Positions 45,372 through 60,659 of a stretch of 64,000 nt of DNA are shown here, piece by piece. Every line of letters begins with the position of its first letter. The first letter of the stretch is position 1. This DNA is from a virus, in IMG/VR virus record IMGVR_UViG_3300028837_000933, positions 32,001 through 96,000 of that record; one strand, written 5' to 3'. The notes beneath the pieces are model-generated. The model worked only from the letters and a program-made list of their open reading frames with translations. It was not told the DNA's origin and searched no databases. Made by a program: the position numbers and the translations under genes.

Positions 45372-45540
45372 TCTCTCATAACTAGGGTCTCTCCCTTGAA
45401 TCACAATCGGGACGGTTGGCCTTTTCCGCGTTTCGCGGGAATTGCCAACGGTCCCTTTTGTGGTGAGAGACCCAACCGCGGAACCGTCCTATTGTGGGTC
45501 GGTTCGGTCGGGTTTCATCACAAAAAGGGAGAGTGATACA

Positions 45541-45654
45541 ATGGAGTTGGTGGAAATGTTGGTCAATATGCAACCCGCGTTTCAGATTCTTCTGGGTGCG
45601 TTCGTGTTGTTGGTGGTTGCGGTTTGTCTGGAGTTGGTTGGTATGATGCGATAG
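45541..45654 (+). CDS. Cassette ORF: 37-aa single-TM peptide
   Basis: ATG after the repeat SD; hydrophobic. Confidence 0.6.
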   Translation: MELVEMLVNMQPAFQILLGAFVLLVVAVCLELVGMMR

Positions 45655-45815
45655 ACCAACCACCAAGACCCACAATAGAATAGAACCGAGAGACCCACAA
45701 TCGGGACGGTTGGCAATTGCCAACGGTCCCTTTTGTGGTGAGAGACCCAACCGCGGAACCGTCCTATTGTGGGTCGGTTCGGTCGGGTTTCATCACAAAA
45801 AGGGAGAGTGATACA

Positions 45816-46199
45816 ATGTCAGATTATAGGTTGTATTGTGAGATTGACGAAACGGTTTTGAGGGAGTTGGTTGCCAGTATTGAAACCGTGTCAATCCGCG
45901 TGCGTGCGGAACCCAACCCTATTCTACAATCGTTGGTTCCACTGGAGATTGTGGAATTGTCGCGGGAACGTGCGTGGTTGACAATCCATCGGATACCCGC
46001 AACCGGAACCGTCAACCGGTATAGTCCAGCCGTCAACGTGGACGTTCCCGGTTGGGTTGACGTGGATCGGTTGGGTTTGTTGGATTGTCTGGACGGTTGG
46101 GTCGGTTGCGGGATTGTAACCCTTTTTTCCACTCACGATGGAATAGGGTATGCTTCTGACGGTTGTTTTGACGTGGACGTTTCCGCGGAAACGTATTGA
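45816..46199 (+). CDS. Cassette ORF: hypothetical protein
   Basis: ATG after the repeat SD; stop at the next repeat. Confidence 0.7.
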   Translation: MSDYRLYCEIDETVLRELVASIETVSIRVRAEPNPILQSLVPLEIVELSRERAWLTIHRIPATGTVNRYSPAVNVDVPGWVDVDRLGLLDCLDGWVGCGIVTLFSTHDGIGYASDGCFDVDVSAETY

Positions 46200-46351
46200 C
46201 CAACCACCAAGACCCACAATAGAATAGAACCGAGAGACCCACAATCGGGACGGTTGGCCTAGGCCAACGGTCCCTTTTGTGGTGAGAGACCCAACCGCGG
46301 AACCGTCCTATTGTGGGTCGGTTCGGTCGGGTTTCATCACAAAAAGGGAGA

Positions 46352-46648
46352 GTGAGGTTCGACTACAATCCCGATGCTATTGGGACGTGTCAACGGGTTG
46401 GTATCTTGGTTCGACTATACCACGATGGGAACCATTATCTTGTATATGACCGTTGGGACGTGATTGACGGTCAATCGCAACCCGTTTTTCTCGCGGGTTT
46501 TGGTGGTCCCGATTATACAAGAAACGGTCAATTGACCTATTCCAGTATTGACCGTGTGACGCGTTTTCTAATGCAAAACGCGGAAAAGGTTGAATTGTGG
46601 TTGACCCATCGGAACCATATTGACGTCAAAACGCACGATCCACAATAG
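46352..46648 (+). CDS. Cassette ORF: hypothetical protein
   Basis: GTG start very close to the SD; stop lies inside the next repeat. Confidence 0.55.
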   Translation: MRFDYNPDAIGTCQRVGILVRLYHDGNHYLVYDRWDVIDGQSQPVFLAGFGGPDYTRNGQLTYSSIDRVTRFLMQNAEKVELWLTHRNHIDVKTHDPQ

Positions 46649-46785
46649 AATAGAACCGAGAGACCCACAATCGGGACGGTTGGCCTAGGCCAACCGTCCC
46701 TTTTGTGGTGAGAGACCCAACCGCGGAACCGTCCTATTGTGGGTCGGTTCGGTCGGGTTTCATCACAAAAAGGGAGAGTGATACA

Positions 46786-47223
46786 ATGTTGTTGGTTGAC
46801 GTACAATTGACGGTTGTTTTCCGGAACCGTCCAGTGATGCGGGACGTGAACGGGAAACGTCAAAAAAACCGGGAACGGTCGACGGGTGATAGGCGTGGTA
46901 TGATGCGGGATGAAACGTGGTTATGTCTCACGTGGAACCATGAAACCGGATTCAAGGTTGCGGATTGGACGTGGTATAGTGGTGGAAACAAACCCTATTG
47001 GAATAGGGAATATGGTTCCGGTGGTCAACGTGCGGTATATTCCTATAGGGACAATCGGTTGACCGCAAACCTAGATGACACGTGGATCACTGACTACCAA
47101 CCACGAAAACCCATCACTGACGCGTCAGTGAAACGGTTGTTTCGGGTTTGTCGAAAATACGGGATGATTGTCGCCTATCTTGGCGACGGTTGGTATACTG
47201 ATTGTGGTGACGTTTCGATATAA
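46786..47223 (+). CDS. Cassette ORF: hypothetical protein
   Basis: ATG after the repeat SD. Confidence 0.7.
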   Translation: MLLVDVQLTVVFRNRPVMRDVNGKRQKNRERSTGDRRGMMRDETWLCLTWNHETGFKVADWTWYSGGNKPYWNREYGSGGQRAVYSYRDNRLTANLDDTWITDYQPRKPITDASVKRLFRVCRKYGMIVAYLGDGWYTDCGDVSI

Positions 47224-47379
47224 CCCGCATCACTGACAATAGAATAGAACCGAGAGACCCACAATCGGGACGGTTGGCCTAGGCCAACGGTCCCTTTTGT
47301 GGTGAGAGACCCAACCGCGGAGCCGTCCTATTGTGGGTCGGTTCGGTCGGGTTTCATCACAAAAAGGGAGAGTGATACA

Positions 47380-47754
47380 ATGTTGTTTTTCGTGGATCGT
47401 GATATACTCGCGGAAACGTTCTATGGTGACGAGTTGGACGATTGGGACCACGTACAGTGGAACGTCAAGTATTGGGGAGAGTTGGTTATAATTCCCTACG
47501 CAAGAATAGGTCAAAAACGTCCCGCGTTCGGTGCGTGGACTATCCCGGTTTCCGTTTTGGAGAGTGCGGAAAACGTCACAATCGATTGTATGGAGTTGGA
47601 TACATTTTTGACCTATTCAAACGTGGAAAAACCCGGTTCGGGTTGTATTGTCGCGTTCCGTTCCGATGGAGAGGGAACCGTTTCCGCGGGTATTGTACGT
47701 CAATCCCGATGGAAACCTATACAAGACCCGTTTTGGTTCGACATTTCACCATAG
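47380..47754 (+). CDS. Cassette ORF: hypothetical protein
   Basis: ATG after the repeat SD. Confidence 0.7.
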   Translation: MLFFVDRDILAETFYGDELDDWDHVQWNVKYWGELVIIPYARIGQKRPAFGAWTIPVSVLESAENVTIDCMELDTFLTYSNVEKPGSGCIVAFRSDGEGTVSAGIVRQSRWKPIQDPFWFDISP

Positions 47755-47916
47755 CACGCACCCACAATAGAATAGAACCGAGAGACCCACAATCGGGACG
47801 GTTGGCCTAGGCCAACGGTCCCTTTTGTGGTGAGAGACCCAACCGCGGAACCGTCCTATTGTGGGTCGGTTCGGTCGGGTTTCATCACAAAAAGGGAGAG
47901 TGAGACGGTCCAAAAA

Positions 47917-48062
47917 TGAAACCGGTGCCGGATACGCTATTTTTCCATCGTTCCGCGATTGACGGTCCCAAAAGGAACGGGACCGAACCCGCAACCGTTG
48001 ACGCGGAAAACCCGCATCGGTTGAAACCCGTGCCGGATACGCTATTTTTCCATCGTTCCGCG
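47917..48062 (+). repeat. 41-nt direct repeat pair flanking a 64-nt hairpin-rich spacer
   Basis: 47917-47957 and 48022-48062 differ at one position. Confidence 0.85.
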
Positions 48063-48220
48063 GGTTGACCAACCACCAAGACCCACAATAGAATAGAACC
48101 GAGAGACCCACAATCGGGACGGTTGGCCTAGGCCAACGGTCCCTTTTGTGGTGAGAGACCCAACCCAACCAACCACGATCCACCAACCCAACCGCGGGAA
48201 CCGTTGACGGGTTGACCAAC

Positions 48221-48369
48221 GGGACCCAACCGCACGCGGGACCCTTGACCCTTTTTCCGGTCGGGACCCAACCGCACGCGGGACCCTTGACCCTTTTTCC
48301 GGTCGGGAACCCAACCGCACGCGGGAACCCTTGACCCTTTTTCCGGTCGGGACCCAACCGCACGCGGGG
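48221..48369 (+). repeat. ~42-bp tandem repeat, 3.5 copies
   Basis: Unit GGGACCCAACCGCACGCGGGACCCTTGACCCTTTTTCCGGTC. Confidence 0.9.
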
Positions 48370-48876
48370 AATCCGCGTCAATTCGGTTGAACGCACCCAC
48401 AACACAAAAACGGGTTACACCGTGCAAAAAATCCCGCACATTTCCGGTCAATTGACCCTTTTTTGGTGAGACCAACCAACCAAAAACAACCGGGTTGACC
48501 GATTTTTGGGTCAATCGTTCCGGTTCCTAGGTCAACGGTCCCTTTTTTGGCCAACCTGGTCGGTTTCCAACCACAACCCTTGGAGCTGGTTCCAACCCAT
48601 AGCGCGAGCGTGAGGGACTTACACCTGGTGGAATCGGGCTGGCGTTTGGAGCCGCCAGCCAAAACGGCGCTAGATTCTACACCAACCGCGGAGCGCGTGA
48701 GCGCACATCTGGCGCATCTTTTCCCACGTTTGGAGTCGATAGCACGGGGCGGTCAGCTGGCCACAGCTGGCGGTCCCTTTTCGGGTGAGAGAGTCGGTAG
48801 TCGGCTCAGGCCGCGCTAGGCTGGAATCGGTCCAGCTTTTCTACGCCGACTCACAACCACAGAGAGGGAGAGTGTC

Positions 48877-49086
48877 ATGGCATGCGGAATCCCGCTATAC
48901 GCGAGCGTGGCGCTGGAATATCCCACGTGCCCGCCAACCACAGCCGGGGACGATGGCCGCGGTTTTCCAGCGGCCGGCGAACCTGGTGACTGGCGAATTG
49001 GCGACCCGCTGGACGATGACGAGATCGGTATCCAGATGGGTGAGCCAATCGGGGTCGAGCACCTGGCTGGTATCGTGCTGGCGTAA
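48877..49086 (+). CDS. Cassette ORF: small acidic protein
   Basis: ATG after the repeat SD. Confidence 0.55.
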   Translation: MACGIPLYASVALEYPTCPPTTAGDDGRGFPAAGEPGDWRIGDPLDDDEIGIQMGEPIGVEHLAGIVLA

Positions 49087-49235
49087 CGCAAGCTGAGCAT
49101 CACAACAGAAAACGAGAGACCCGAATTGGGGCGAACCGGGACGGTCCGGTTGGTCCCTTTTCGGGTGAGAGAGCCAACCACCAACCGGGGTCGTCCCGGC
49201 TGGCCTGGTTCTCATCACCACAGAGGGAGGGAACG

Positions 49236-49583
49236 ATGTACAGCTATTGCGATGTGGAAACCTATTGGGTGCCAGTCGAACATGGTCCAACTCTCCAGCC
49301 AATGGCCGGGATGTTCTTGGCGCCGGACGGCTGGAATGCCCGAACGGTCAAAACGCCGCGACCCCATTGGGGCGGTGAGACGCTGCTGGAATGCACCGAT
49401 TGGGACAAGGCAGCCTTCCGCTTGCCAACGCGGCACATCGGCATCGAAGTCGCGATCAACGTGCGCATCACGGGCCACCGCGTCCACGTGTGGGACGGTC
49501 GCCATTGGGTGAGGACACGGATCACGTGGGTCGGGGACTGCGAGCCGGACAGCTATAGCGGCGGCTGGCTTTGCATCCGCTAG
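49236..49583 (+). CDS. Cassette ORF: hypothetical protein
   Basis: ATG after the repeat SD. Confidence 0.7.
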   Translation: MYSYCDVETYWVPVEHGPTLQPMAGMFLAPDGWNARTVKTPRPHWGGETLLECTDWDKAAFRLPTRHIGIEVAINVRITGHRVHVWDGRHWVRTRITWVGDCEPDSYSGGWLCIR

Positions 49584-49707
49584 AACACAACAACCGAATA
49601 CTCGCGAGAGACCCGAATTGGGACGGCGTGGCCTTATTCCACGTGGTCCCTTTTCGGGTGCCGGCGCCCCTGGTTCGGGCGTCGAGTACAGAGAGGGAGG
49701 GCATATC

Positions 49708-49938
49708 ATGGCAGCAGTATCGTACATGGCGCGTTTTCACTCGGGGCGTTTGCTCCGGCTGGTCGGCAAGCTGGTCATGGTCCAGCTGGCATACGGTGTG
49801 GCCGAGGGCACGCTGTCGGTTGACGGCGAGCTGGCCAATTGCGTTTACACCGTGACCGGATCTGGCACGCATCTGGAGTTCCGCGTGGAGAAGGTGCGGG
49901 ACGTGGAGTACAGCGAGCGCCTGGTGGTGCTCGTCTAG
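49708..49938 (+). CDS. Cassette ORF: hypothetical protein
   Basis: ATG after the repeat SD. Confidence 0.7.
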   Translation: MAAVSYMARFHSGRLLRLVGKLVMVQLAYGVAEGTLSVDGELANCVYTVTGSGTHLEFRVEKVRDVEYSERLVVLV

Positions 49939-50060
49939 CACAACAACCGAATACTCGCGAGAGACCCGAATTGGGACGGCGTGGCCTTATTCCACGTGGT
50001 CCCTTTTCGGGTGCCGGCGTCCGATCTGCTGACGCCGAGTACAGAGAGGGAGGGCATATC

Positions 50061-50444
50061 ATGGATAGCTTGGAATTGGGTGCCACGGCGGAGTTGCGCG
50101 TGCTGGTCAGGGGTTACAAGGGCCAGGACGGGCTCGATGTCCGGAAGTTCTACAATGGCAAGCCAACCAAAAAGGGTGCTTTTCTCTGCATCCCTGGACA
50201 GGCGGAGTTCGCCGTCAAGGCGCTTGGCCTGGTCCTGGCTGGCGAGAGCGCGGAAGAGGCGCTTCCCATCGATCGCGCCGCCAAGGGCACAACCAACCTG
50301 GTCGTGCGGCGCTTCGAGTTCAAGGGGATGGATGGTATCAGCATCCGGAAAGAGGGCGAGCGCTGGGGCAAGGGGATCTGGCTCAAGCTGGCTCAGGCCG
50401 AGTGGGCGTTCGGCGCGATGAAAGCCGCTCTGGCTGGCAAGTAG
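50061..50444 (+). CDS. Cassette ORF: tandem PC4/YdbC-like ssDNA-binding protein
   Basis: Two related halves, YKGQDGLDVRKFY..KPTKKG and FKGMDGISIRK..GKGIWL. Confidence 0.65.
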   Translation: MDSLELGATAELRVLVRGYKGQDGLDVRKFYNGKPTKKGAFLCIPGQAEFAVKALGLVLAGESAEEALPIDRAAKGTTNLVVRRFEFKGMDGISIRKEGERWGKGIWLKLAQAEWAFGAMKAALAGK

Positions 50445-50594
50445 CACGCATCACCACAACCGAATAGCGAGAGACCCGAATTGGGGCGAACCGGGATGTT
50501 CCGGTTGGTCCCTTTTCGGGTGAGAGAGCCAGTCACCCAACCGGGGTTGTCCCGGCTGGCCGCTGGGTCTCATCACAGAGAGGGAGGGATTGCA

Positions 50595-51266
50595 ATGGCG
50601 ATGCACAAGACGGACGAGCTGTATCTGGACGCGCTGCCGCCGTTTCCACACAGCGACGAGGAGTTCTACAAGATGGAGACCACGCGGGACGTTCCGACAT
50701 CGGCGCTGTGGTTCGAGCGCTGTGGTGACCATCTGGACGGTCGCAAGCTGGCAATCTGGCCACGCGAGCGGAGCGCGTGGAACGTGGTCCACAACGTCTT
50801 CTGGATGACGTTCTATCCGGACGGCGCTGTGGTCGGCGGCTATGGCACGCGGATCGAGGGCGTGGATACGCCGTACAACTGGCGCAGTCACATCGAGCAC
50901 CTGGCTCGCCGGAACGGCTACAAGGTGACGGAGCCGGGACGGAACCGGACAATCCGGGTGGACTGGCATCCTGGTGACGTGGTGGCCGTGGTGTTCAAGT
51001 ACATCGAGCGCCGCGAGACGCTGGACCAGTCGGAGTTGAACCGGCTGTACGACTACCGCCAGTTCTGGAACCCGCGGAAGGTGCGCAAGCTGTCGCTGTG
51101 GGTGGGCAGCGCGTGCCCTGGACAGCGCCAAGCTGGGCGCATAGCAACACAACAACCGAATACTCACGAGAGACCCGAATCGGGGCGGCTGGGCTTCATT
51201 CCCAGTGGCCCCTTTTCGGGTGCCGGCGCCCCTGGTTCGGGCGCCGAGTACAGAGAGGGAGAGTGA
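50595..51266 (+). CDS. Cassette ORF: hypothetical protein (apparent C-terminal frameshift; native stop probably 51144)
   Basis: ATG after the repeat SD; reads through the next repeat because of a TGGG duplication at 51099-51106. Confidence 0.6.
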   Translation: MAMHKTDELYLDALPPFPHSDEEFYKMETTRDVPTSALWFERCGDHLDGRKLAIWPRERSAWNVVHNVFWMTFYPDGAVVGGYGTRIEGVDTPYNWRSHIEHLARRNGYKVTEPGRNRTIRVDWHPGDVVAVVFKYIERRETLDQSELNRLYDYRQFWNPRKVRKLSLWVGSACPGQRQAGRIATQQPNTHERPESGRLGFIPSGPFSGAGAPGSGAEYREGE

Positions 51267-51623
51267 ATGATGGACGTCGAGACTACGGTTTGTCGGCTCA
51301 AAGCAACGCTGGTATCCAGCGAGGGTGAGAATCTCAGCGTCAAGGCTCGCGGTGACGGAACGCTGTCGGTGACAGAGCTTGACACCAACAACGCGTTCAC
51401 CACAACGCGGACGCTGGTCGGCGTGATCGTCTACGCGGCGGGCCGGAGCGTGATACACCGGGCTTCCGCGCTGGACACGCTCCGCGGACTGCGTGGCGAC
51501 AAGGCGGTCAAGCTGGTGGACGATGGCGAGGGCGCGTTGATTGGCTGGGAGTGCTCCGGCTGTCCCCATGGTGAGCACTGGCACGATGTGAGCGTGGTGC
51601 CAGCCGACATCACAACCGAATAG
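51267..51623 (+). CDS. Cassette ORF: hypothetical protein
   Basis: ATG after the repeat SD; CxxC near the C-terminus. Confidence 0.65.
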   Translation: MMDVETTVCRLKATLVSSEGENLSVKARGDGTLSVTELDTNNAFTTTRTLVGVIVYAAGRSVIHRASALDTLRGLRGDKAVKLVDDGEGALIGWECSGCPHGEHWHDVSVVPADITTE

Positions 51624-51725
51624 CGAGAGACCCGAAACGGGGCGGTTGGCCGATGGTGGCCGCGGTCCCTTTTCGGGTGCCGGCGCCTGGGGCTTAGGCG
51701 CTGGACAACAGAGAGGGAGGGTATC

Positions 51726-52106
51726 ATGCCGCACGGAATCAGTGGACTGTGTTTCGAGTTGGAAGTTGGCATATTCCGGCGAGCGTTGCTGGCCAACGTG
51801 TCGCGGAGCGTGTCGATCCTGGCTACGCACATCGGCAAGGCGCCAGTGATAATCCGGGACCTGGACTACAATCCGGGGATCGTGACGGAGCGCCGGATCG
51901 AGCGCAGCCAGATCGTGCTGTCGGTTGGTCGCATGGCTCTGGACAGCAGCAAGCTGCTGGGGTTCCTGGCCGGGATGGCCAACAGCGCACGCGTCCAGGT
52001 GGCCTACAACGCGGACAGCGAGCCGTGCATCACCGGGCTGTGCTGGGGCCAAAAGCGATGGCACACAATAGCCGACCTGGAGCCGTTCCAGTCGCCCGCC
52101 AGCTAG
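51726..52106 (+). CDS. Cassette ORF: single sliding-clamp-like domain
   Basis: FELEVGIFRRAL...GRMALDSSKLLGFL...VQVAYNADSEP resembles a DnaN domain pattern. Confidence 0.4.
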   Translation: MPHGISGLCFELEVGIFRRALLANVSRSVSILATHIGKAPVIIRDLDYNPGIVTERRIERSQIVLSVGRMALDSSKLLGFLAGMANSARVQVAYNADSEPCITGLCWGQKRWHTIADLEPFQSPAS

Positions 52107-52228
52107 ACTGGCGCACAACCGAATAGCGAGAGACCCGAATGGGGGCGAGCCGGGACGGTCCGGTTGGTCCCTTTTCGGGTGCCAGCGGCTTAGGGTTAGC
52201 CGTTGAGTACAGAGAGGGAGGGAGTAAC

Positions 52229-52552
52229 GTGAATCTCAGCATGGATACGGTATTGGACATCTGCAAGCGGTATGGCAAGCTGGGTTCGGCTGGTCAGGAC
52301 GTGCTGGAGTCGGCGTTGAACCGGGACCTGGGGTACGAGAACACAACGCCGTCCTTGGTGGAAGAGGCGCGGTCGTTCCTGGAGCTTCTGGCTGTCGAGT
52401 TCCCAGCTGAGGCTGGGGTGGCTTGTGAGGCTGAGTCCACAGCCGAGTACTGCGCCGAGTATCTGGCCAACGAACCGGAAGACGGCGAGGAGTGGGGCGA
52501 GTTGGAATGGACGGAATGGGGATTGGGCTGGAGTGGCGCGAGAGGCGGATAG
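52229..52552 (+). CDS. Cassette ORF: acidic hypothetical protein
   Basis: GTG after the repeat SD; Glu-rich. Confidence 0.65.
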   Translation: MNLSMDTVLDICKRYGKLGSAGQDVLESALNRDLGYENTTPSLVEEARSFLELLAVEFPAEAGVACEAESTAEYCAEYLANEPEDGEEWGELEWTEWGLGWSGARGG

Positions 52553-52697
52553 GACTGTTCATCCCTACCGTTCCCAACGGAATCACAACCGAATAGCGAG
52601 AGACCCGAAACGGGGCGGTTGGCCAACGGTGGCCAGCGGTCCCTTTTCGGGTGCCGGCGTCCGATCTGCTGACGCCGAGTACAGAGAGGGAGAGTGA

Positions 52698-53393
52698 ATG
52701 ATGGAGAGCAAGAGGGAAGTAGTTCACCTGGCCCTGATGGAAACCACGTGGCCGGACGCGCCGCACATCGGGAGGTGGTCGTACACGCTTGGCGACTATG
52801 CCGGGGAGTGCAGCCAGTTGTACCCGACAGCTGACGCGTGCGATGCCGCCCTGGAAGAGCTGATGCCGAAAGCTCGCTGGGACAGGCGGGTTGTCGTCTG
52901 CTGCAAGGTCCACCACGAGAGTGCAGATGTGGACGTGGTGACCGACTACAGCATCGCGGACGGCGAGGTCATCGGCGTACACCGAGTGGAGCCAGGCGGC
53001 TGGCTGCGCAAGGTGCAGCAGCTGCTGGAGTCGGCGGTCAACGCCGACCTGGCCGAAACGGAAGTCCGTCGACAGATGCTGCAAAGCGCCCGGTGGCCAC
53101 GGGCGGCGACCATCGCAAAGTTCTTGTACACCACAGACGGCGAGCAGGCGCTGTGGTTCGCCAACGCCGACCGCACACGGTTCGCGAGCGCCTCGCCGCA
53201 CCACGCGCACAACGTGATGGGGCGGGCCGTCACCACGTGGCACGAGAACGGAGACGTTGACACGCACGTCTGGATGCCCAAACCGTCGCTACAGTTCTGG
53301 GTGACGGGGATGGTGCTGTTCGTCAAGGTCAACTACGATCTCGATCCGGTGAGCCGGGAAGAGGTCATGGCCTGCATCACAGCGCCGGAATAG
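52698..53393 (+). CDS. Cassette ORF: hypothetical protein
   Basis: ATG after the repeat SD. Confidence 0.7.
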   Translation: MMESKREVVHLALMETTWPDAPHIGRWSYTLGDYAGECSQLYPTADACDAALEELMPKARWDRRVVVCCKVHHESADVDVVTDYSIADGEVIGVHRVEPGGWLRKVQQLLESAVNADLAETEVRRQMLQSARWPRAATIAKFLYTTDGEQALWFANADRTRFASASPHHAHNVMGRAVTTWHENGDVDTHVWMPKPSLQFWVTGMVLFVKVNYDLDPVSREEVMACITAPE

Positions 53394-53515
53394 GCGCCAG
53401 TACAACCGAATACAGAGAGACCCGAAACGGGACGGTTGGCCTATGGTGGTCGCGGTCCCTTTTCGGGTGCCAGCGCCAGCGGCTTAGGCGCTGAGTAACA
53501 GAGAGGGAGGGCAGT

Positions 53516-53815
53516 ATGACGGAATACGAGAAGGCGGTCGAGCGCACGGAGCTTGCGATGTTCGAGCTGGGCGTGGACGCGGGGTTCAATGAGCACGCGT
53601 TCTGCATCGGGCGCGATCAGGGCGACACCGAGATCAAGCTGTGGAGCGTCTACACTCCGCTGGCTGGCGGCGGCAAGCGGCGCATCACAACGGTCATGGG
53701 GCGCACGGAGCTTGAGGCTCAGGACAGAGCGTGGGACACGTTGAACCGGCCGGGGCGCGTGGCAATCGCGCTCGAGTGGCGCGACATGGGTTGTCGCGTA
53801 GAACCGAAAGAGTAA
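53516..53815 (+). CDS. Cassette ORF: hypothetical protein
   Basis: ATG after the repeat SD. Confidence 0.7.
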   Translation: MTEYEKAVERTELAMFELGVDAGFNEHAFCIGRDQGDTEIKLWSVYTPLAGGGKRRITTVMGRTELEAQDRAWDTLNRPGRVAIALEWRDMGCRVEPKE

Positions 53816-53917
53816 CACGAGAGATCCGAATCGGGACGGTGGCCAATGGCCGCGGTCCCTTTTCGGGTGCCGGCGCCTGGGGCTTAGGCGCTGGACAACA
53901 GAGAGGGAGGGTGTATC

Positions 53918-54148
53918 ATGGCCGGAAACGGCAAGCCAAGTCTCCGCTATAATCGGGGGCGCCGCGTGCTTCTGGACGCACGCTCAGCGCACTTTCAGCG
54001 GACGGGGCACAAGCGCATCCACGTGGGCTTGAACTACATCGAGTGCGAGGTCTGCAAGGCACACGCGCACCTGGATCGGTTCGCCCGGCAGCTGCTACAG
54101 CATGGCCGAGTGGGGCCGCTGTACCAGATTCAGCCAGCCGAGTTCTAG
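53918..54148 (+). CDS. Cassette ORF: small basic protein with H/CxxC motif
   Basis: ATG after the repeat SD. Confidence 0.65.
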   Translation: MAGNGKPSLRYNRGRRVLLDARSAHFQRTGHKRIHVGLNYIECEVCKAHAHLDRFARQLLQHGRVGPLYQIQPAEF

Positions 54149-54284
54149 CATCGGCGGCGGGACAGTAGCACAGAGAGACCCGAAACGGGGCGGTTGGGGT
54201 GCCGCAGAGTCATGGTCCCAACGGTCCCTTTTCGGGTGCCGGCGCCTGGGGCTTAGGCGCTGGACAACAGAGAGGGAGGGTATC

Positions 54285-54587
54285 ATGCGGAGAGTGTTCA
54301 AGGTCGCGGAGAAGGACGGCGACGAGATCAACGAGAAGGCGCTCCGGCTGGCCGCCAAGGCGCTCCGGCGTGAGCGTGACGGCGGTGCTCTGCTACGTGT
54401 CGGGCGGGACTACGAGCCGATGGAAGTGGAGCGGATCAACGTTGGCACGGAGTGCCGCGGGCTGATGGGGCGCACGCTGTTCCTGGAAGTCGTCGACGGG
54501 CGCAAGCGCGTACACAAGGTAGCCGCCGAGATGGTTCGGGGCGTCTACGTCTACGGCGGGACACGGACGGTCGAGACAGTCGAGTAG
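54285..54587 (+). CDS. Cassette ORF: hypothetical protein
   Basis: ATG after the repeat SD; the TAG overlaps the next repeat. Confidence 0.7.
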   Translation: MRRVFKVAEKDGDEINEKALRLAAKALRRERDGGALLRVGRDYEPMEVERINVGTECRGLMGRTLFLEVVDGRKRVHKVAAEMVRGVYVYGGTRTVETVE

Positions 54588-54673
54588 AGAGATCCGAAAC
54601 GGGACGGTGGCCAGCGGCTGCGGTCCCTTTTCGGGTGCCGGCGCAACACGCGCCGAGTACAGAGAGGGAGGGA

Positions 54674-55087
54674 ATGATGGAGACGCTACACTTTGCTATC
54701 GTGAGAGTCTCGCACAAGACGGACGGCGCTGTGGAGTGGTGTGCTCTGGTCATGGTGGAGCACACGAGCGCATGGGACCGTCCAGCGCGGTTCGAGTGGC
54801 AGGGGATCTATCCCACGCTGGCCAGCCTGGAGCGTGGACTCGCCAAGGTGTACCCTGGCTCAGAGTTGGGCAAGGGCCGTGGCCTAACGTTCATGGTACA
54901 CGTGACGCGCCACGACACCGACACCACCGACCGCATCCAGCGCTATCTGCTACCGCCGCCCGATGGCCGCGAGGTGGAAGTGCCGAGTCATGGCAACGAT
55001 GCCGAGATCACGATCCAGTCCTGGCTGCTGGACGAGGTCGTCCAGCGGAAGGCGCTGGCCTTCGATGCGGCGCGGAACGCGGAGTAG
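54674..55087 (+). CDS. Cassette ORF: hypothetical protein
   Basis: ATG after the repeat SD. Confidence 0.7.
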   Translation: MMETLHFAIVRVSHKTDGAVEWCALVMVEHTSAWDRPARFEWQGIYPTLASLERGLAKVYPGSELGKGRGLTFMVHVTRHDTDTTDRIQRYLLPPPDGREVEVPSHGNDAEITIQSWLLDEVVQRKALAFDAARNAE

Positions 55088-55187
55088 AGAGAGACCCGAA
55101 ACGGGACGGTTGCCACCGGCAGCGGTCCCTTTTCGGGTGCCAGCGCCAGCGGCTTAGGCGCTGAGTGACAGAGAGGGAGGGAGTATC

Positions 55188-55409
55188 ATGGCTGAGGAGT
55201 TGAAACGGGCGGAGCGGGTGTTGCGGACGAAGCTGGCTCGAATGTACAGAGTCTACGGTGAGGCTGTCATCCGGAAGGTCGCGGCCGTGGAGTTCTTGGG
55301 CGTGGTGGACGGGTTCTACCAGTTCCAAGTGGAGTTCGAGCGAGAGTTGCTTCCCCAGTTCTACGAGGTGCGCTTGTACGCCAAGAGCGCCAGGGTGTAC
55401 AGCGCCTAG
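55188..55409 (+). CDS. Cassette ORF: hypothetical protein
   Basis: ATG after the repeat SD. Confidence 0.7.
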   Translation: MAEELKRAERVLRTKLARMYRVYGEAVIRKVAAVEFLGVVDGFYQFQVEFERELLPQFYEVRLYAKSARVYSA

Positions 55410-55501
55410 AGAGACCCGAGATGGGACGGTGGCCAATGGCCGCGGTCCCTTTTCGGGTGCCGGCGCACTGCGCCGAGTACATCACAGAGAGGGAGGGTAT
55501 C

Positions 55502-56269
55502 ATGGGTAGACGCGAGATGCTCAAGAGGGACGCGGGCGTCCGGTTCCTGTATCTGGTCTCCGAGAAGATTCTGGAGACCTACGAGATCAAGCACTGGCCA
55601 AGCGTCATGCGGAACCGCAAGACCAGTCTACACCGACGCCGGAACGGGACGAGCCAGCTGCTGTTCAGCTGGTCCAACGTCCAGCGGCAGTGGTACTGCG
55701 GAGCCAGGGAGTACAAGACGGTGGCCAGGGCAATGCGCGAGGTCAACGAGCGCTCAGAGCCTGGCTGGCACGCACTCCGGCAGGTCCTGCTCCACGAGTG
55801 CGCCCACGCGCTTCAGTATGAGGTGCCGAACGGGCGGACGCGGGGCAGCATCCACAACGAAGTGTTCATGGCCGAGTACCGTGCTCTGCTGGAACGCTAC
55901 GATCTGGATCGGTGCCTGACGATGGCTGGTCTCACGCTGGACAGCAAGCCGCCGTGGGAAGAGCCGAAAGTGGAAGAGCCAACCACCGCACAGACATCGT
56001 TCATCGCACCCAAACCGCAGACAGAACTGCTCATCGGACGGATCAAGATCAAGGAAAAGGCGCAGTTCTGGTCAGCGAGACAGCAAAAGGACGGCAAGAT
56101 CAACCTGTCGTTCGGCCGCAAGTACTACGCTAAGATGACGTCGACGGAGCGCCAGCTGCTGCTCGAGTACTGCATGGCCACGATGCGGAAGTCGCTATTC
56201 CGCGTGCCGATCCCGCCCGACCTCCGCGGCCAGTACCTGGCGCTGAGGCTGCGAGTGGGCGGCTGGTAG
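55502..56269 (+). CDS. Cassette ORF: SprT-like zinc metalloprotease
   Basis: VLLHECAHALQ...HNEVF (HExxH plus a downstream H). Confidence 0.7.
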   Translation: MGRREMLKRDAGVRFLYLVSEKILETYEIKHWPSVMRNRKTSLHRRRNGTSQLLFSWSNVQRQWYCGAREYKTVARAMREVNERSEPGWHALRQVLLHECAHALQYEVPNGRTRGSIHNEVFMAEYRALLERYDLDRCLTMAGLTLDSKPPWEEPKVEEPTTAQTSFIAPKPQTELLIGRIKIKEKAQFWSARQQKDGKINLSFGRKYYAKMTSTERQLLLEYCMATMRKSLFRVPIPPDLRGQYLALRLRVGGW

Positions 56270-56369
56270 AGAGACCCGAGATGGGACGATGGCCCGGCCT
56301 GGGCTGTGGTCCCTTTTCGGGTGCCAGCGCCAGCGGCTTAGGCGCTGAGTAACAGAGAGGGAGGGCAAT

Positions 56370-56678
56370 ATGGAAACGGCGGACTTGGGGTATGGAACCG
56401 TGCTGGCGCTCAAGCCAACGGGACGGCACGCGGACGTGTTCCAGCAAGTCATCTTGATCAGCGATGGCAGCGCTGTGTTCCCGCGAGGCGAGGAGACGCG
56501 GTTCTTCGGTCTTTTCGTAGACGACTACGAGCAGCCAACGAAGTATGGGTTGGCCAACGTGTACGTCCCGGAAGAGGCGGAAGAGCGTGTCGGTCAAGTC
56601 GAGGAAACGCAGGTGCCGATCATGGTCGTTGATGCCGGCTTTGGCTGGCCTGGACGACTCACACCGAAGGAGGGCTGA
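56370..56678 (+). CDS. Cassette ORF: hypothetical protein
   Basis: ATG after the repeat SD. Confidence 0.7.
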   Translation: METADLGYGTVLALKPTGRHADVFQQVILISDGSAVFPRGEETRFFGLFVDDYEQPTKYGLANVYVPEEAEERVGQVEETQVPIMVVDAGFGWPGRLTPKEG

Positions 56679-56679
56679 G

Positions 56680-56841
56680 ATGGCATTCGATCCGAGATAC
56701 AGACCGCGCCCCGAGAACTGGGGCAAGCTGCACACCGCGCTCAAAGCTGGCGATGAGGCCAAGGCTGAGCGCATCCTCCGCACAATCGAGGCCGAAACCG
56801 AGCTGATGATACGCGAGGCAGAGGCGTACAAGGGCGACTAG
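56680..56841 (+). CDS. Second ORF in cassette (53 aa)
   Basis: AAGGAGG SD; ends at the next repeat. Confidence 0.6.
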   Translation: MAFDPRYRPRPENWGKLHTALKAGDEAKAERILRTIEAETELMIREAEAYKGD

Positions 56842-56930
56842 AGAGATCCGAAACGGGACGGTGGCCAGTGGCCGCGGTCCCTTTTCGGGTGCCGGCGCAA
56901 CACGCGCCGAGTACAGAGAGGGAGGGAGAT

Positions 56931-57341
56931 ATGGTTTTCCATGTGAAGCAGTACGTCTTGATGCGGCTGCTGTCGAATTGCCGCGTCAGGGCGCCGTGGA
57001 TGGACACGATCCGTCTGCACGCCATGCACCCGCAAGACCTACATCTGGTGAGGCTGGATCTGTTCGTGGAGGACGCGGGCGGCAACGTGGATGGTATCGG
57101 CATGATGCACACTATCGAAGAGTGCTACGACACCGTACACGTTGACAGTCCTGGCGCTGTCCTGGTCAGCTTGCACGAGCTGGGCAACGTGGTTCGTCAC
57201 CACGCACCCGACCAGTACGTGACACTGGCGCTGTACGAGAAGGGCGAAGAGCGCGTCATGGTGAGCATCGGCAATGGCCATCCGAAGTATGTGGCCCGCA
57301 TCGATGCGAGCACGCTCCGCACCTTGCCAGATGCGGAGTAG
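56931..57341 (+). CDS. Cassette ORF: single sliding-clamp (DnaN domain I)-like protein
   Basis: MVFHVKQYVLMRLL...PGAVLVSLHELGNVVRH. Confidence 0.5.
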   Translation: MVFHVKQYVLMRLLSNCRVRAPWMDTIRLHAMHPQDLHLVRLDLFVEDAGGNVDGIGMMHTIEECYDTVHVDSPGAVLVSLHELGNVVRHHAPDQYVTLALYEKGEERVMVSIGNGHPKYVARIDASTLRTLPDAE

Positions 57342-57444
57342 TAGGAGAGACCCGAAACGGGACGGTTGCCACCGGCAGCGGTCCCTTTTCGGGTGCCAGC
57401 GCCAGCGGCTTAGGCGCTGAGTAACAGAGAGGGAGGGAACAGTC

Positions 57445-58089
57445 ATGGAGATGAAGTGGAGTCACGAGATGTCCAAGCTGACGCTGGTCATCGAGACGGA
57501 ACAGGGCGCCATCACAGATCCCGATGAAGTGCTACGCGCCGCCGAGGTCATCTTGATGACGGCGGTCAGCCATCTGGAGCCGGACACGGCGCCCGAGATC
57601 GTGCAGCGCGTGATCGATCACGTCACCACCACCAACGATGCCATCGAGAGCGGCGACTGGAGTGGCGAGGCTGGACCAGACGAGTGCGACACGTGCTACA
57701 ATCTGCTGGACAGCCACGATGGGTGTGTGTTCTGCGACCAGGACGAACCCGATCCGCCGCCACGCGAGTACCGCAAGGTCAAGCAAGGCGACACGGTGCG
57801 GTTCGCCCACAAGCTGGGCTACGAGGTGACGGCTGTGGTGGTCGGCAAGCGGTTCTACGCACACGCAGCGGACGCGTCCAGCATCACCGTGTACAGCGCT
57901 GACCACGGCACGCTGTACGGTCTCTCGCTGGGCGCTTACGAGATTCTCGCACAGCCGGACGATGCGACCCGCGAGAAGAAGTTCGTGGAGGCGGACGAGA
58001 ACTACAAGGCGCATCTGAAACAGTACGGGATCTGGGCGGCCAGATTCGAGCAGGAGCCCGACTACCGATTCTTCGAGTGGGAGGGCTAG
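57445..58089 (+). CDS. Cassette ORF: hypothetical protein with CxxC..CxxC zinc ribbon
   Basis: CDTC...CVFC. Confidence 0.7.
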   Translation: MEMKWSHEMSKLTLVIETEQGAITDPDEVLRAAEVILMTAVSHLEPDTAPEIVQRVIDHVTTTNDAIESGDWSGEAGPDECDTCYNLLDSHDGCVFCDQDEPDPPPREYRKVKQGDTVRFAHKLGYEVTAVVVGKRFYAHAADASSITVYSADHGTLYGLSLGAYEILAQPDDATREKKFVEADENYKAHLKQYGIWAARFEQEPDYRFFEWEG

Positions 58090-58188
58090 ACGAGAGACCC
58101 GAGATGGGACGGTTGCCACCGGCAGCGGTCCCTTTTCGGGTGCCAGCGTCCGATCTGCTGACGCTGAGTAACAGAGAGGGAGGGTATC

Positions 58189-58734
58189 ATGGGTAAGAGG
58201 TATCGAACGATCAACCTGGGCTGGGGCGCGGGTGAGCGCCGCTACGTCCGCCATGCGCTGGAGTCGACCGAGACCGGAATGCTCCGGCACCAGTTCAAGG
58301 TGTCAGACGAGGAGTGGGCCGCCAAGGTGAGCCCGACACCCGCCAGCGTGCGCCGCTTGCTTCGCGTGCTGGTCAAGAACGGCTGGAGCATCTGCGCCGA
58401 GGGAATGCTCAAGCCGGAAGTCGCCAAGGGCCGCGTGTGCGGCAACAACGCGCCCCGCTACGTCCACGTTGACTACAACGACTACGATGGCCGCGAGCAG
58501 CTGGTGCCGCCGCGCTGCTACAGCCGGACACCACCGCCCTGCGTCCACGAGGGCGTCCACGTTGACCAGCCCCGCGCCGTGACGGAGTTCGAGAACGTCA
58601 CCCAGGCATCCGTGGGCCGCATCCTGGAGCTTCTGGACGAGGACGATGTGACAGTCTGGGCGGCTGTGGAGCCGTCCGTCACTCGCGTCCAGTTCCTTGG
58701 CTACGTGCCAACGGGCGAGGAAGAGGACGCTTAG
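58189..58734 (+). CDS. Cassette ORF: hypothetical protein with internal duplication
   Basis: KVSPTPASVRRLL and NVTQASVGRIL; a similar ITDASVKRL occurs in 46786..47223. Confidence 0.7.
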   Translation: MGKRYRTINLGWGAGERRYVRHALESTETGMLRHQFKVSDEEWAAKVSPTPASVRRLLRVLVKNGWSICAEGMLKPEVAKGRVCGNNAPRYVHVDYNDYDGREQLVPPRCYSRTPPPCVHEGVHVDQPRAVTEFENVTQASVGRILELLDEDDVTVWAAVEPSVTRVQFLGYVPTGEEEDA

Positions 58735-58821
58735 AGAGACCCGAAACGGGACGGTCAGCCTAGCTGGCGGTCCCTTTTCGGGTGCCGGCGCAACGCGCCG
58801 AGTACAGAGAGGGAGGGAGAT

Positions 58822-59199
58822 ATGCTGTTCACAGTGAGACAGAACTACCTGTTCCGTATGCTGGCGGATGCCCGCCGTACCGTGCCGTTCCTGGAGCGGG
58901 TCACGCTCAGCGCGGAGTACGTTGGCAACGGACGGGCAAAGCTGACGATGACGTTTCTCGATGACGAGATGAGCTTGTCGCACAAGTTCTCGACTGAATG
59001 CACCGTGCGCATCGAAGTGGAGGGTGCGTGCAGCGCGGACGTATCGGAGCTTGCCGACTTTGTCGGCCAGTGCAAGCCGACTGAGCACATCGATGTCAGC
59101 TTGCTAGGCAGCGATGCCGGCGACCGCCAGGTGTTGGTGTCCTCTGGCGGCTACGGGAACGCGATCAAAGGCGAGCGCGTCATGCTGATGCGTGACTGA
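58822..59199 (+). CDS. Cassette ORF: single sliding-clamp (DnaN domain I)-like protein
   Basis: MLFTVRQNYL...PFLERVTL...LTMTFLDDEMSL...EGACSADVSELADFV...VLVSSG. Confidence 0.6.
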   Translation: MLFTVRQNYLFRMLADARRTVPFLERVTLSAEYVGNGRAKLTMTFLDDEMSLSHKFSTECTVRIEVEGACSADVSELADFVGQCKPTEHIDVSLLGSDAGDRQVLVSSGGYGNAIKGERVMLMRD

Positions 59200-59296
59200 G
59201 AGATCCGAAAACGGGACGGTTGGCCTAGGCCAGCGGTCCCTTTTCGGGTGCCGGCGCCCCTGGTTCACGCGCCGAGTACAGAGAGGGAGGTGTGTG

Positions 59297-59635
59297 ATGA
59301 TGAAAGTACGTGTTCGCCAGAAAGCGCTGGTCGCTGCTCTTGCAGACGCGGCCAGTTCGAGCCACGTCCAGCTGGAGGCCACGCGTCCGCATCAGCTGGC
59401 CGTGACGGGGCCGGAGGGTGACGTGAGGTACATCGGGCGATGCTTCTACGAGTGTTTCACGGAGCGTGTCGGTTCCGTCACCGTCTCCGCCAACAAGTTG
59501 CTGGCCGTGCTCGATGAGTGGATGCGGTGGGACTACGTGACTCTGCTCGCATCGCCAGTGCTGGGCGGTTGGATGCTCGTGAGCAACGAGCAGACCAACG
59601 AGGCCAAGGCCATCAAGCTGGCCAGCTACAGCTAG
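59297..59635 (+). CDS. Cassette ORF: single sliding-clamp-like protein
   Basis: MKVRVRQKALVAAL...GSVTVSANKLLAVL. Confidence 0.55.
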   Translation: MMKVRVRQKALVAALADAASSSHVQLEATRPHQLAVTGPEGDVRYIGRCFYECFTERVGSVTVSANKLLAVLDEWMRWDYVTLLASPVLGGWMLVSNEQTNEAKAIKLASYS

Positions 59636-59744
59636 GAGAGATCCGGAATCGGGCGTGTCAGTTCAACGTTAGACTGATAGGCCCGTTTTCGGGTGCCAGC
59701 GCCCGCTACCACGGGCGTTGAGTATCACAGAGAGGGAGGGTACG

Positions 59745-59948
59745 ATGGAAGGGCATGAGCATGACGACACGGACCTGTGCGCCTGTGGCGCGGATCTGCT
59801 CGAGGCCATCACCAATGGCTACGCGCACTACGCCTACACCGAGGGCACGTTCACGATCGAATGCTACGAGTGCGGCCTGGAGATCGAGGTCGAGGCCGAG
59901 GCGCACGTCACGTTCAAGGTGACGGTTCCGAAGGAGAGTGCGACATGA
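59745..59948 (+). CDS. Cassette ORF: acidic zinc-ribbon protein
   Basis: CACG...CYECG. Confidence 0.7.
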   Translation: MEGHEHDDTDLCACGADLLEAITNGYAHYAYTEGTFTIECYECGLEIEVEAEAHVTFKVTVPKESAT

Positions 59949-60307
59949 GAGAGTTTCTCAAGAGAGAGGTGAGGGGTGAGCGCCCCGCCGAGGCGCCCGA
60001 TGGCTGGATCGTCTACAACGCGCCGCGTCCCATCTGGGGCCACACGAAGTGGCAAGGCGACTTTGTGACTGGCGTGTTCTACGCGGCTGTAGATCCCGAG
60101 ATGGACGATGCGGACGAGATGGTCGCCCACAACCAGCTACAGCACGCGGCCGAGCTGACGTTCATCAGCGAAGAGGAATGGCGCCGGCGCGTCGAAGAGT
60201 ACGGTCGAAAGATGTCGGCGGAGTACGAGATCAACCTGGACGACTTCGAGTGGGCCGACATAGAGGCCAGCTACGCCAACTGGCTCCGGCAGGAGCACGA
60301 AACGTGA
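59945..60307 (+). CDS. Second ORF in cassette: acidic hypothetical protein
   Basis: ATGA overlap and AAGGAG SD. Confidence 0.65.
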   Translation: MREFLKREVRGERPAEAPDGWIVYNAPRPIWGHTKWQGDFVTGVFYAAVDPEMDDADEMVAHNQLQHAAELTFISEEEWRRRVEEYGRKMSAEYEINLDDFEWADIEASYANWLRQEHET

Positions 60308-60384
60308 GAGATCCGAACCGGGACGGCTACCCTGTCAAGGGGTGGCGGTCCCTTTTCGGGTGCCGGCGCAAGACGAGTCGCCGC

Positions 60385-60412
60385 TTGCCGTTCTGCACGT
60401 TTTGTGTATAAT
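60385..60412 (+). promoter_or_regulatory. Sigma70-like promoter embedded in the last repeat copy
   Basis: TTGCCG-16-TATAAT. Confidence 0.55.
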
Positions 60413-60461
60413 GGACACGGTTGGCGCGGAGCGCCGAGTAATCACAGAGGGAGGGAGAAAC

Positions 60462-60659
60462 ATGACAAGTCGCAAGTGGAGTGGAGTCGGAAAGCTAGTG
60501 CTGTACGCACTGGTCATCGCGGCCGCGGTAGCACTGTCGGTCGCGGTGGAGGGTGCCGAACGCACGGTCTCGCTGGTCGTGTTCGCCGCCATGCTCAGGA
60601 CGCTTCTGCTCTTATACAGAGAGAGCGCAAAATGGGCGGAGGCGTGCGTCTATGACTAG
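60462..60659 (+). CDS. Small two-TM membrane protein
   Basis: ATG after the repeat SD; two hydrophobic segments. Confidence 0.6.
   Translation: MTSRKWSGVGKLVLYALVIAAAVALSVAVEGAERTVSLVVFAAMLRTLLLLYRESAKWAEACVYD

Follow-up and report, generated by a model that had tools for sequence, protein, structure and literature searches.

Mosaic two-hairpin elements at the gene junctions of a small-ORF array in an uncultured tailed phage

How phages gain, lose and reshuffle their small early ORFan genes, the pool that yields host-takeover and anti-defence functions, is a long-standing question, and one raised by an array of repeated elements in the IMG/VR record IMGVR_UViG_3300028837_000933. The record is a linear contig of 121,820 bp from marine sediment, 87% complete according to CheckV, and represents an uncultured tailed phage for which we found no close relatives; the window analysed here is a 64,000-nt stretch of it (bases 32001–96000), and positions are given in window coordinates. 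On the + strand of its rightward (early) arm, between some 30 small open reading frames (ORFs) that are mostly ORFans, lie 30 co-oriented intergenic elements (45398–60461), each built around a hairpin, P1, usually followed by a second, P2, and a Shine-Dalgarno (SD) sequence. The copies are mosaics that require exchange between copies. On balance we think it probable that they are cis-acting expression cassettes, working as sense-strand RNA in each early-gene gap, which have become mosaic by short-patch exchange together with compensatory change.

The 16-nt core of the element, GGTCCCTTTTCGGGTG, has 34 matches at three or fewer mismatches, against 0.72 expected from shuffles; 30 are the + strand copies, and the four on the - strand are the complementary 5' arm of the same hairpin, P1. 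A covariance model of P1, applied to the whole record, finds exactly 30 + strand copies, all between 45398 and 60363, scoring 46–72 bits except for one divergent copy at 26 bits; reverse-strand readings score 13–33 bits. All copies stand in a single ~15-kb array in one orientation (30:0), with none in the rest of the genome, and each copy of ~100 nt fills the entire gap from a stop codon to the next start codon, one per gene junction. Read 5' to 3', a copy has an optional leader, the tract GAGAGA(C/T)CCGAAACGGGACGG, a variable apex mini-hairpin, CGGTCCCTTTTCGGGTG, which comprises the core and the P1 3' arm, and then the P2 hairpin, CC(G/A)GCG-inner-CGC(C/T)G; on the 3' side of P2 come AGTA(A)C and AGAGAGGGAGGG, a spacer of 1–8 nt and the ATG. 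Of the 23 forward copies of the extended SD motif AGAGAGGGAG in the genome, 21 belong to the array, to which the motif is thus almost exclusive. The copies fall into an early family of seven (45398–48154) with the core TTTTGTGGTG and a long P2, a middle family of three (starting at 48738, 49116 and 50471), and a main family of 20 (49608–60461).

P1 has three tiers, P1a (ACCCGAAA/UUUUCGGGU), P1b (GGGAC/GUCCC) and the variable apex P1c, which make 19 pairs with three conserved interruptions, about two helical turns; P2 is a stem of 7–10 pairs, and the SD is unpaired in folds. Among 23 distinct P1 sequences, standard pairs fill 95.4% of 437 cells, and double-sided changes occur at eight of the 19 pairs (45 cells), a level reached by none of 500 shuffles, with slid controls collapsing; the covariation holds despite a MAFFT alignment that mis-registers the early-family 5' arm, at a cost of six cells. 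The early family swaps CCCGAA/UUCGGG for CCACAA/UUGUGG, and the P2 stem is 98.6% paired, with two compensated pairs. Stems are preserved by compensatory change while apex and loop sequences drift. An invariant UUUU in the P1 3' arm is kept even where its partner bases differ. Such wobble pairs as occur in P1 are G.U when read on the + strand. In 29 of 30 copies this strand folds more stably than the - strand (mean -53.7 versus -44.6 kcal/mol), and fold z-scores run from -3.5 to -5.5. Because of this covariation, the G.U asymmetry, the stability of the + strand fold, the 30:0 orientation and the stop-to-start placement, the data point to an element that acts as sense-strand RNA and not as a DNA cruciform. 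We offer it as a new RNA motif with strong covariation.

The apex of P1, the inner part of P2 and the spacer serve as internal markers that record past exchanges in the 30 elements. Every P1/P2 combination listed in the initial annotation is present, at positions that correspond to element 5' ends to within a few bases. The apex GCGTGGCCTTATTCCACGT (class a1) is paired with the P2 inner sequence CCCCTGGTTCGGG (class b1) in element 10 (49608–49707; also named by its inner position, 49645) and with TCCGATCTGCTGA (b2) in element 11 (49961–50060; 49998). The apex GTTGCCACCGGCAGC (a5) is joined to CCAGCGGCTTAGG (b4) in elements 21 (55091–55187; 55124) and 25 (57347–57444; 57380), and to TCCGATCTGCTGA in element 26 (58094–58188; 58127), and GTGGCCAATGGCCGC (a4) to CCTGGGGCTTAGG (b3) in element 18 (53821–53917; 53854) and to a short CACTG in element 22 (55411–55501; 55444). 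The early-family apex GTTGGCCTAGGCCAAC returns as GTTGGCCTAGGCCAGC (a9) beside a b1-like P2 in element 28 (59200–59293; 59235).

For a quantitative comparison the 20 main-family copies were cut into modules: leader, 5' arm, apex, core, P2 5' stem, P2 inner, P2 3' stem, post-P2, SD and spacer. Distances between apexes show no correlation with those between P2-inner segments (Mantel r=+0.12, p=0.17). Leader, 5' arm and apex intercorrelate (r=0.22–0.36, p<0.005) and also correlate with distance along the array (r=0.31–0.45); P2 modules show little correlation with array position. All four multi-member apex classes pair with two or three P2 classes. Under strict classes, two copy pairs are alike in both apex and P2, with 1.23 expected (p=0.34), and under broader hand-made classes five, with 1.66 expected (p=0.02). 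P1 and P2 are effectively unlinked, and the independent assortment originally proposed for them is slightly overstated, in view of the weak residual linkage under the broad classes.

Exchange between copies is evident from a homoplasy test of the pairwise homoplasy index (PHI) type on 61 informative sites in 19 copies, element 30 (inner position 60347) having been dropped for its 60-nt insert; the observed value of 0.61 compares with 0.845 under permutation (p=2e-4). For the sites of P2 inner, incompatibility is low among themselves (0.18) and towards post-P2 (0.21); towards the apex and towards the spacer it is high, at 1.23 in each case. An identical 13-nt P2 inner segment occurs in three contexts, with three apexes and two outer stems. 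In element 11 both flanks are identical to those of element 10, and P2 alone is that of element 16 (52600–52697; inner position 52638), an a2/b2 copy. Element 26 matches elements 21 and 25 on both sides, the A-U outer P2 pair included, and has the 13-nt inner segment of elements 11 and 16, so that a b2 patch sits within a b4-type outer P2 stem (CCAGCG...CGCTG). Since elements 11 and 26 each have one parent on both sides of P2, each carries a patch and not the trace of a single crossover. The spacer CATATC is common to elements 10 and 11 although their P2 differs, and GGGAGAG-TGAATG, SD with spacer, is common to element 16 and element 13 (51170–51266; inner position 51207; a1-like apex, b1), again despite different P2. 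P2 is therefore discordant with the adjoining SD-spacer, which means that P2-SD-ORF is not a stable unit, and the movement of P2-SD-ORF-P1 as one cassette, as first suggested for this array, is not borne out.

Where the junctions fall was assessed in two ways. A minimal count of parent switches over the modules needs 24, of which 9–10 lie in the interval of core and P2 5' stem, eight between P2 3' stem and spacer, four in the 5' half of P1 and two between P2 inner and P2 3' stem. A nucleotide-level Viterbi path, with one switch priced at three mismatches, places 23 junctions in 19 copies: seven in three-way identical tracts of 15–23 nt that contain the core, three in tracts of 17–22 nt that start in the 3' stem of P2 and extend into the SD, and 13 with tracts of 0–6 nt, clean examples among these being GGGACG (element 22, P1 5' arm), GCG (element 26) and CG (elements 10 and 13), the GCG and CG junctions lying inside the P2 stem. 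In most copy pairs the core and the bases flanking it make up the longest exact tract in common (median 22 nt), and only 22 of 190 copy pairs share 30 nt or more. The initial annotation had located recombination at the invariant core; the core tract is indeed the commonest junction by both counts, yet the SD tract, the P2 stem and the P1 5' arm are also used, and breakpoints are to that extent scattered. We infer that the core is favoured because it is the longest tract of shared identity and not because it is a dedicated crossover site. Exchange among the elements is fine-grained and tracks the available homology instead of one hotspot.

Homologous short-patch exchange among the repeats is thus largely shown, and its course can be sketched. 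The 30 direct repeats share identical tracts, namely GGGACG, the core tract (16–23 nt) and a P2-3'-stem/SD tract of ~20 nt, through which homologous exchange has repeatedly transferred short patches between copies, mostly as short-tract gene conversion and possibly by unequal crossovers. The leader with 5' arm, the apex, P2 and the spacer of one element have as a result come to differ in their nearest relatives, and selection for RNA structure would add compensatory change in the stems.

The genes between the elements bear on the same question. Pfam assigns no family to eight of ten array ORFs tested, and PHROG none to any of the ten. The ORF at 50061–50444 has a PC4-type ssDNA-binding domain (E=1.8e-7), that at 55502–56269 a weak SprT-like HExxH match below the Pfam cut-off, and ORF 52698–53393 matches itself alone among 5.8 billion proteins. 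The C-terminal ~100 aa of ORF 57445–58089 form a small domain that occurs as stand-alone proteins of 100–140 aa in 19 distant cluster representatives (32–43% identity), and its N-terminal half is unique; a search for viral loci that encode it gave seven pattern matches, none of them confirmed. Comparison of 35 ORFs gives a single paralogous pair, 56931–57341 and 58822–59199 (26% identity, E=3e-8), whose upstream P2-SD-spacer is almost identical and whose P1 apexes differ on both sides; ORF 59297–59635 has no detectable paralogy to 58822–59199. ORFs flanked by the same class pair are unrelated to each other. Elements and ORFs thus have separate histories, the ORFs showing, that one pair apart, no mutual relationship. 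A two-cassette tandem duplication, considered for the alternation of a4|b6 and a5|b4 at 54.6–57.4 kb, was rejected because the ORFs are unrelated. The further claim that an upstream P2 travels with the P1 downstream of its ORF is weakly seen within this genome (four shared pairs against 1.55 expected, p=0.055), with a linkage no better than that inside one element.

Two element subfamilies accompany two compositional gene classes. ORFs behind early-family elements (45541–47754) have a G+C content at third codon positions (GC3) of 0.46–0.53, apart from one 37-codon ORF at 0.66, compared with 0.73–0.86 in the main array (48877–60659); structural genes have 0.69–0.78. Because its GC3 is low relative to the main array, the composition suggests that the early-family block was imported from another phage using the same kind of element; of the signs of between-phage exchange in these data this is the best, though an indirect one.

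Could the core nevertheless be the crossover point of a PeSL- or integron-like cassette system (PeSL, promoter-early-stem-loop), in which P2-SD-ORF-P1 units are excised and re-inserted within GGTCCCTTTTCGGGTG and P1 and P2 are thereby reshuffled? Such a system would make the core the commonest junction and the longest tract shared by most pairs, the unrelated ORFs between alike elements fit the capture of ORFs between elements, the GC3 of the early block suggests an import, and PeSL-mediated shuffling with mini-circles is documented for T4-type phages, as described in PMC2839356. We consider it unlikely all the same, as there are further junctions in the 5' arm of P1, within the P2 stem and on the right-hand side of P2, P2 disagrees with the SD-spacer of the supposed unit, the upstream P2 and downstream apex are weakly linked, and the sole paralogous pair keeps its P2 and not its downstream apex. 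No integrase or resolvase was found in the record. Only four sequencing runs contain the region, all of DNA and all from one marine-sediment study, with no RNA run among them; Logan contigs of these runs have no deletion or duplication joints in the main array, which is weak evidence because contigs drop rare variants, and uncovered or joint-free parts prove nothing.

A history free of exchange, by descent from a few ancestral copies with point and compensatory mutation or by convergence on a few functional loops, would suit the single-step differences between some loops (for example GTGGCCAATGGCCGC / GTGGCCAGTGGCCGC / GTGGCCAGCGGCTGC and GAAAC / GAATC), the clear selection for pairing in the stems, and a strict-class association of apex and P2 that is no different from random; it is, however, very improbable in view of the PHI-type result, for point mutation is an implausible source of the identical 13-nt P2 inner with its three apexes and two outer stems, identical complex spacers stand beside different P2, and a tree-compatible history of all multi-nucleotide modules is violated by the four-gamete combinations that are present. 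That the mosaics are chimeric joins made at the repeats by the metagenome assembler we find hardly credible. The contig was indeed assembled from short metagenome reads, breaks in the Logan contigs fall at almost all elements (of 67 contig records from run X1, 28 fit two places), and the window differs from run X2 by a 29-nt indel at 51101 and from X1 and X2 near 46356. Apex and P2 inner, however, are only ~23 nt apart, inside any read or 31-mer, and independent contigs built at k=31 cross whole elements with no differences and confirm individual P1/P2 combinations (X1 records 7, 58119–58822, and 4, 55438–56337). X1 contains 95% of sampled words from 49600–59300, a match that is not independent support because X1 may be the source sample.

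Several points weigh against short-patch exchange among sense-strand RNA cassettes, the reading we prefer. Several of the 13 short-tract junctions are probably gap artefacts, or may be alignment artefacts or ordinary mutation. In the outer stem of P2 the lone G/A and C/U differences pair with each other, and could be compensatory mutation instead of a patch border. Excision and re-insertion of a cassette at two tracts would look identical within one genome, the record, at its 87% completeness, yielded no single-strand annealing protein of the RecT or ERF kind, and the processing, termination and leader roles proposed below are read from the anatomy of the element.

A wider and more tentative idea, to which we give a low probability, is that of an integrase-free gene-cassette system in which the element would serve both as the expression signal of an ORFan and as a set of multi-tract homology linkers, with exchange within and between related phages. 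Were this so, the conserved tracts, three or four in number, would allow leader, apex, P2 and whole ORFs to be exchanged, the early block with its low GC3 would represent an import of this kind, and the recurrent P2 loops would be regulatory classes of early genes.

For promoters we used a consensus scan that assumes an E. coli-like consensus. Promoter-like hexamers are present in four early-family leaders (45652, 46196, 47745 and 48065) and in P2 of element 30 (60308–60461), the loop of which is enlarged by ~60 nt and contains a sigma70-like TTGCCG-N16-TATAAT (60385–60412), apparently through insertion of a promoter into the loop. A weak match at 53892–53919 (TGGACA-N16-TATCAT, 10/12) spans the SD, spacer and start codon of element 18. 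The scan shows no promoter-like site in the leaders and hairpins of the other main-family elements. P1b and P1c (11–13 bp) are followed by the invariant UUUU and then CGGGUG, with two or three of the U's pairing with an upstream A tract, an arrangement that may resemble a weak intrinsic terminator. P1 would be more than a terminator of the upstream gene, since element 1 has no upstream gene and lies just past a TATAAT, and since compensatory change maintains the outer part of the stem past the U tract. The size of P1, 19 pairs with three interruptions, fits the roughly 22-bp interrupted duplex of RNase III sites. Most likely, P1 delimits the upstream message at its 3' end, whether by processing, by 3' stabilization or as a leaky terminator; we favour a processing or stability boundary element, possibly also an attenuator, with P2 and the SD as a putative 5' leader of the next message.

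The remaining members of the array are as follows. The early family opens with element 1 (45398–45540; 45.8 bits), which has a long apex and begins ~50 nt past the TATAAT. Element 2 (45690–45815) has the family core TTTTGTGGTG with the compensating CCACAA 5' arm and a long P2, element 3 (46234–46355) carries TTGACC-N18-TAGAAT in its leader, and in element 4 (46660–46785) a CG at the core start closes a G.G mismatch; elements 5 (47254–47379) and 6 (47782–47903) follow, and element 7 (48103–48154) consists of P1 only. As a separate observation, X1 and X2 contigs join 45544 to 46356 and 45546 to 47904, one of them with 12 other letters between; all these joints fall at the 3' edge of near-identical early-family elements and are either population variants or the assembly collapse of perfect repeats of more than 100 nt. 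The middle family comprises element 8 (48738–48876), with the divergent 26-bit P1 and a long P2, element 9 (49116–49235), with the apex AACCGGGACGGTCCGGTT and AGAGAG at the start of P2, and element 12 (50471–50594).

Within the main family, P1b is compensated as GGGGC/GCCCC in element 13 and as CGGGC/GCCCG in the divergent element 29 (59638–59744). Beside element 13 we noted that ORF 50595–51266 lacks an in-frame stop before the element and reads through it in the window; 29 extra bases behind 51101 in an X2 contig would bring a TAG at 51142 in frame, just before element 13, and the window probably carries a small deletion or assembly error there. Apex class a2 is joined to b3 in element 14 (51627–51725) and to b4 in element 17 (53417–53515), and in element 15 (52130–52228) a middle-family apex (a3) is joined to a main-type P2 (b5). 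Element 19 (54175–54284) combines a long apex, a6, with b3, and element 23 (56271–56369) a7 with b4. The pairing a4/b6 (CAACACG) is that of elements 20 (54589–54676) and 24 (56843–56930), the latter having a spacer, AGAT, in common with element 27 (58736–58821; a8, b6-like CAACG), the ORFs downstream of the two being the paralogous pair.

In the surrounding genome, - strand genes up to ~41 kb code for a tape-measure protein (2834–7996), head-morphogenesis proteins and the large terminase (TerL; 36097–37932); DnaB, a pol III beta clamp, ParB-like proteins, a C5 methylase and an amidase are encoded in the rest of the record. The small-ORF array begins on the + strand past a non-coding stretch that parts the two divergent arms. 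In this gap, at 42903–44770, an iteron-like 15-mer, GAAACCGTGWGAAAC (two or fewer mismatches), is repeated 31 times on the + strand, some of the copies within a 73-nt tandem unit, and the AT skew is very strong (0.44 at 42–44 kb); the region is probably an origin or a regulator-binding array. A 42-nt tandem repeat that contains TTGACC (48220–48368; 3.5 copies, 97% identical) lies inside the ~600-nt non-coding stretch that follows element 7. It divides the early-family block, with its low GC3, from the main array, and a second promoter or operator region may be located here.

Relatives of the element were sought widely. Megablast of 49000–60500 found nothing among GenBank phages; in IMG/VR, exact-pattern scans returned only single-copy chance matches, seven for the core, three for the left arm and four for the SD motif, a scan of JGI metagenomes one chance match only, and a scan of GTDB genomes seven single matches in unrelated taxa. 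A TerL search for close relatives found none, the homologues having at most 54% identity and some being source-labelled as Chloroflexi or Anaerolineae metagenome-assembled genomes. The P1 model had no match in the 22 whole records among 80 distant TerL loci, the 58 shorter loci lying outside the model search, and a k-mer screen of the 80 loci and one whole 109.6-kb record detected no dispersed repeat family, only a 24-bp tandem array (locus L089). Rfam at gathering thresholds has no family for the element. In the record itself (87% complete), neither a tyrosine recombinase (PF00589, no matches) nor a serine recombinase was found, and no RNase III gene was detected; a search of the record for a T7-like RNA polymerase was also blank, a result without weight as control genomes gave no signal either.

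Several known systems resemble the array in part. Repeats of the REP, REPIN and MITE kinds, which are selfish and often accompanied by a transposase, are dispersed and occur in both orientations, in contrast to the 30 + and 0 - copies in one 15-kb array here. Integrons likewise have co-oriented promoterless ORFs, each followed by an imperfect palindrome, attC, with conserved outer arms, unpaired bases, a variable centre and strand-specific folding. The phage element differs by its second hairpin and by including the SD for the gene that follows, and no IntI-type integrase (PF00589) was found in the 87%-complete record; the conserved arms of the element do not look like attC boxes.

Phage T7 has an RNase III site ahead of its first gene, a position comparable to that of element 1. 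According to PMC3867540, the T7 early transcript is cut at five RNase III signals, with a duplex of ~22 bp, and cleavage, in particular single-strand cleavage, can leave stabilizing 3' hairpins. Interrupted hairpins of about two turns between the genes of a polycistronic early transcript are a shared trait on that description; T7 has five such sites, as against 30 candidate sites in the phage array.

The cluster K mycobacteriophages have 11–19 copies per genome of the start-associated sequence (SAS), a conserved SD-containing motif just before the starts of non-structural genes, as reported in PMC3203893. Often there are imperfect inverted repeats of ~17 bp around a variable spacer upstream (extended SAS, ESAS), and nearly all copies have one orientation, much as here. 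On the consensus given in that report, the 13-bp SAS and the 17-bp ESAS half-site are not matched by the phage element, so the architecture is alike and the sequences differ. The ESAS as described there is one inverted repeat with a spacer of 4–13 bp, where the phage element has a variable mini-hairpin in place of the spacer and a second hairpin next; the 11–19 SAS of a genome compare with 30 elements, one per gene junction of the array.

The closest parallel is offered by the PeSL of T4-type phages, a cassette of a sigma70 promoter and a stem-loop, for which between-phage indels and mini-circles have been shown (PMC2839356) and which has been proposed as homology for gene shuffling (PMC2839356; PMC4122927). 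Going by those descriptions, both are ~100 bp long, intergenic, stretch from the upstream stop to the next SD or start, have a stable stem-loop and occur in tens of copies, mostly before ORFans, in a plastic early region. The PeSL, however, is defined there by a strong sigma70 promoter, and the phage element is mostly without a promoter-like site and has two hairpins with a three-tier P1; mini-circles and between-phage indels belong to the PeSL record alone, and the phage contig is siphovirus-like, in contrast to the T4-like myoviruses. Lacking the promoter and having unrelated sequences, the element belongs in our view to neither the PeSL nor the SAS/ESAS group. Recombination between such repeats is not a new idea, and direct support for linker sequences has come mainly from the T4-type PeSLs. 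The novelty lies in the fine-grained exchange over several tracts that the elements record internally, in their design with two hairpins and in a density of one element for each gene across 15 kb. With its 30 structured elements and their internal markers, the array is a second case of unusual clarity, in a phage both uncultured and unrelated.

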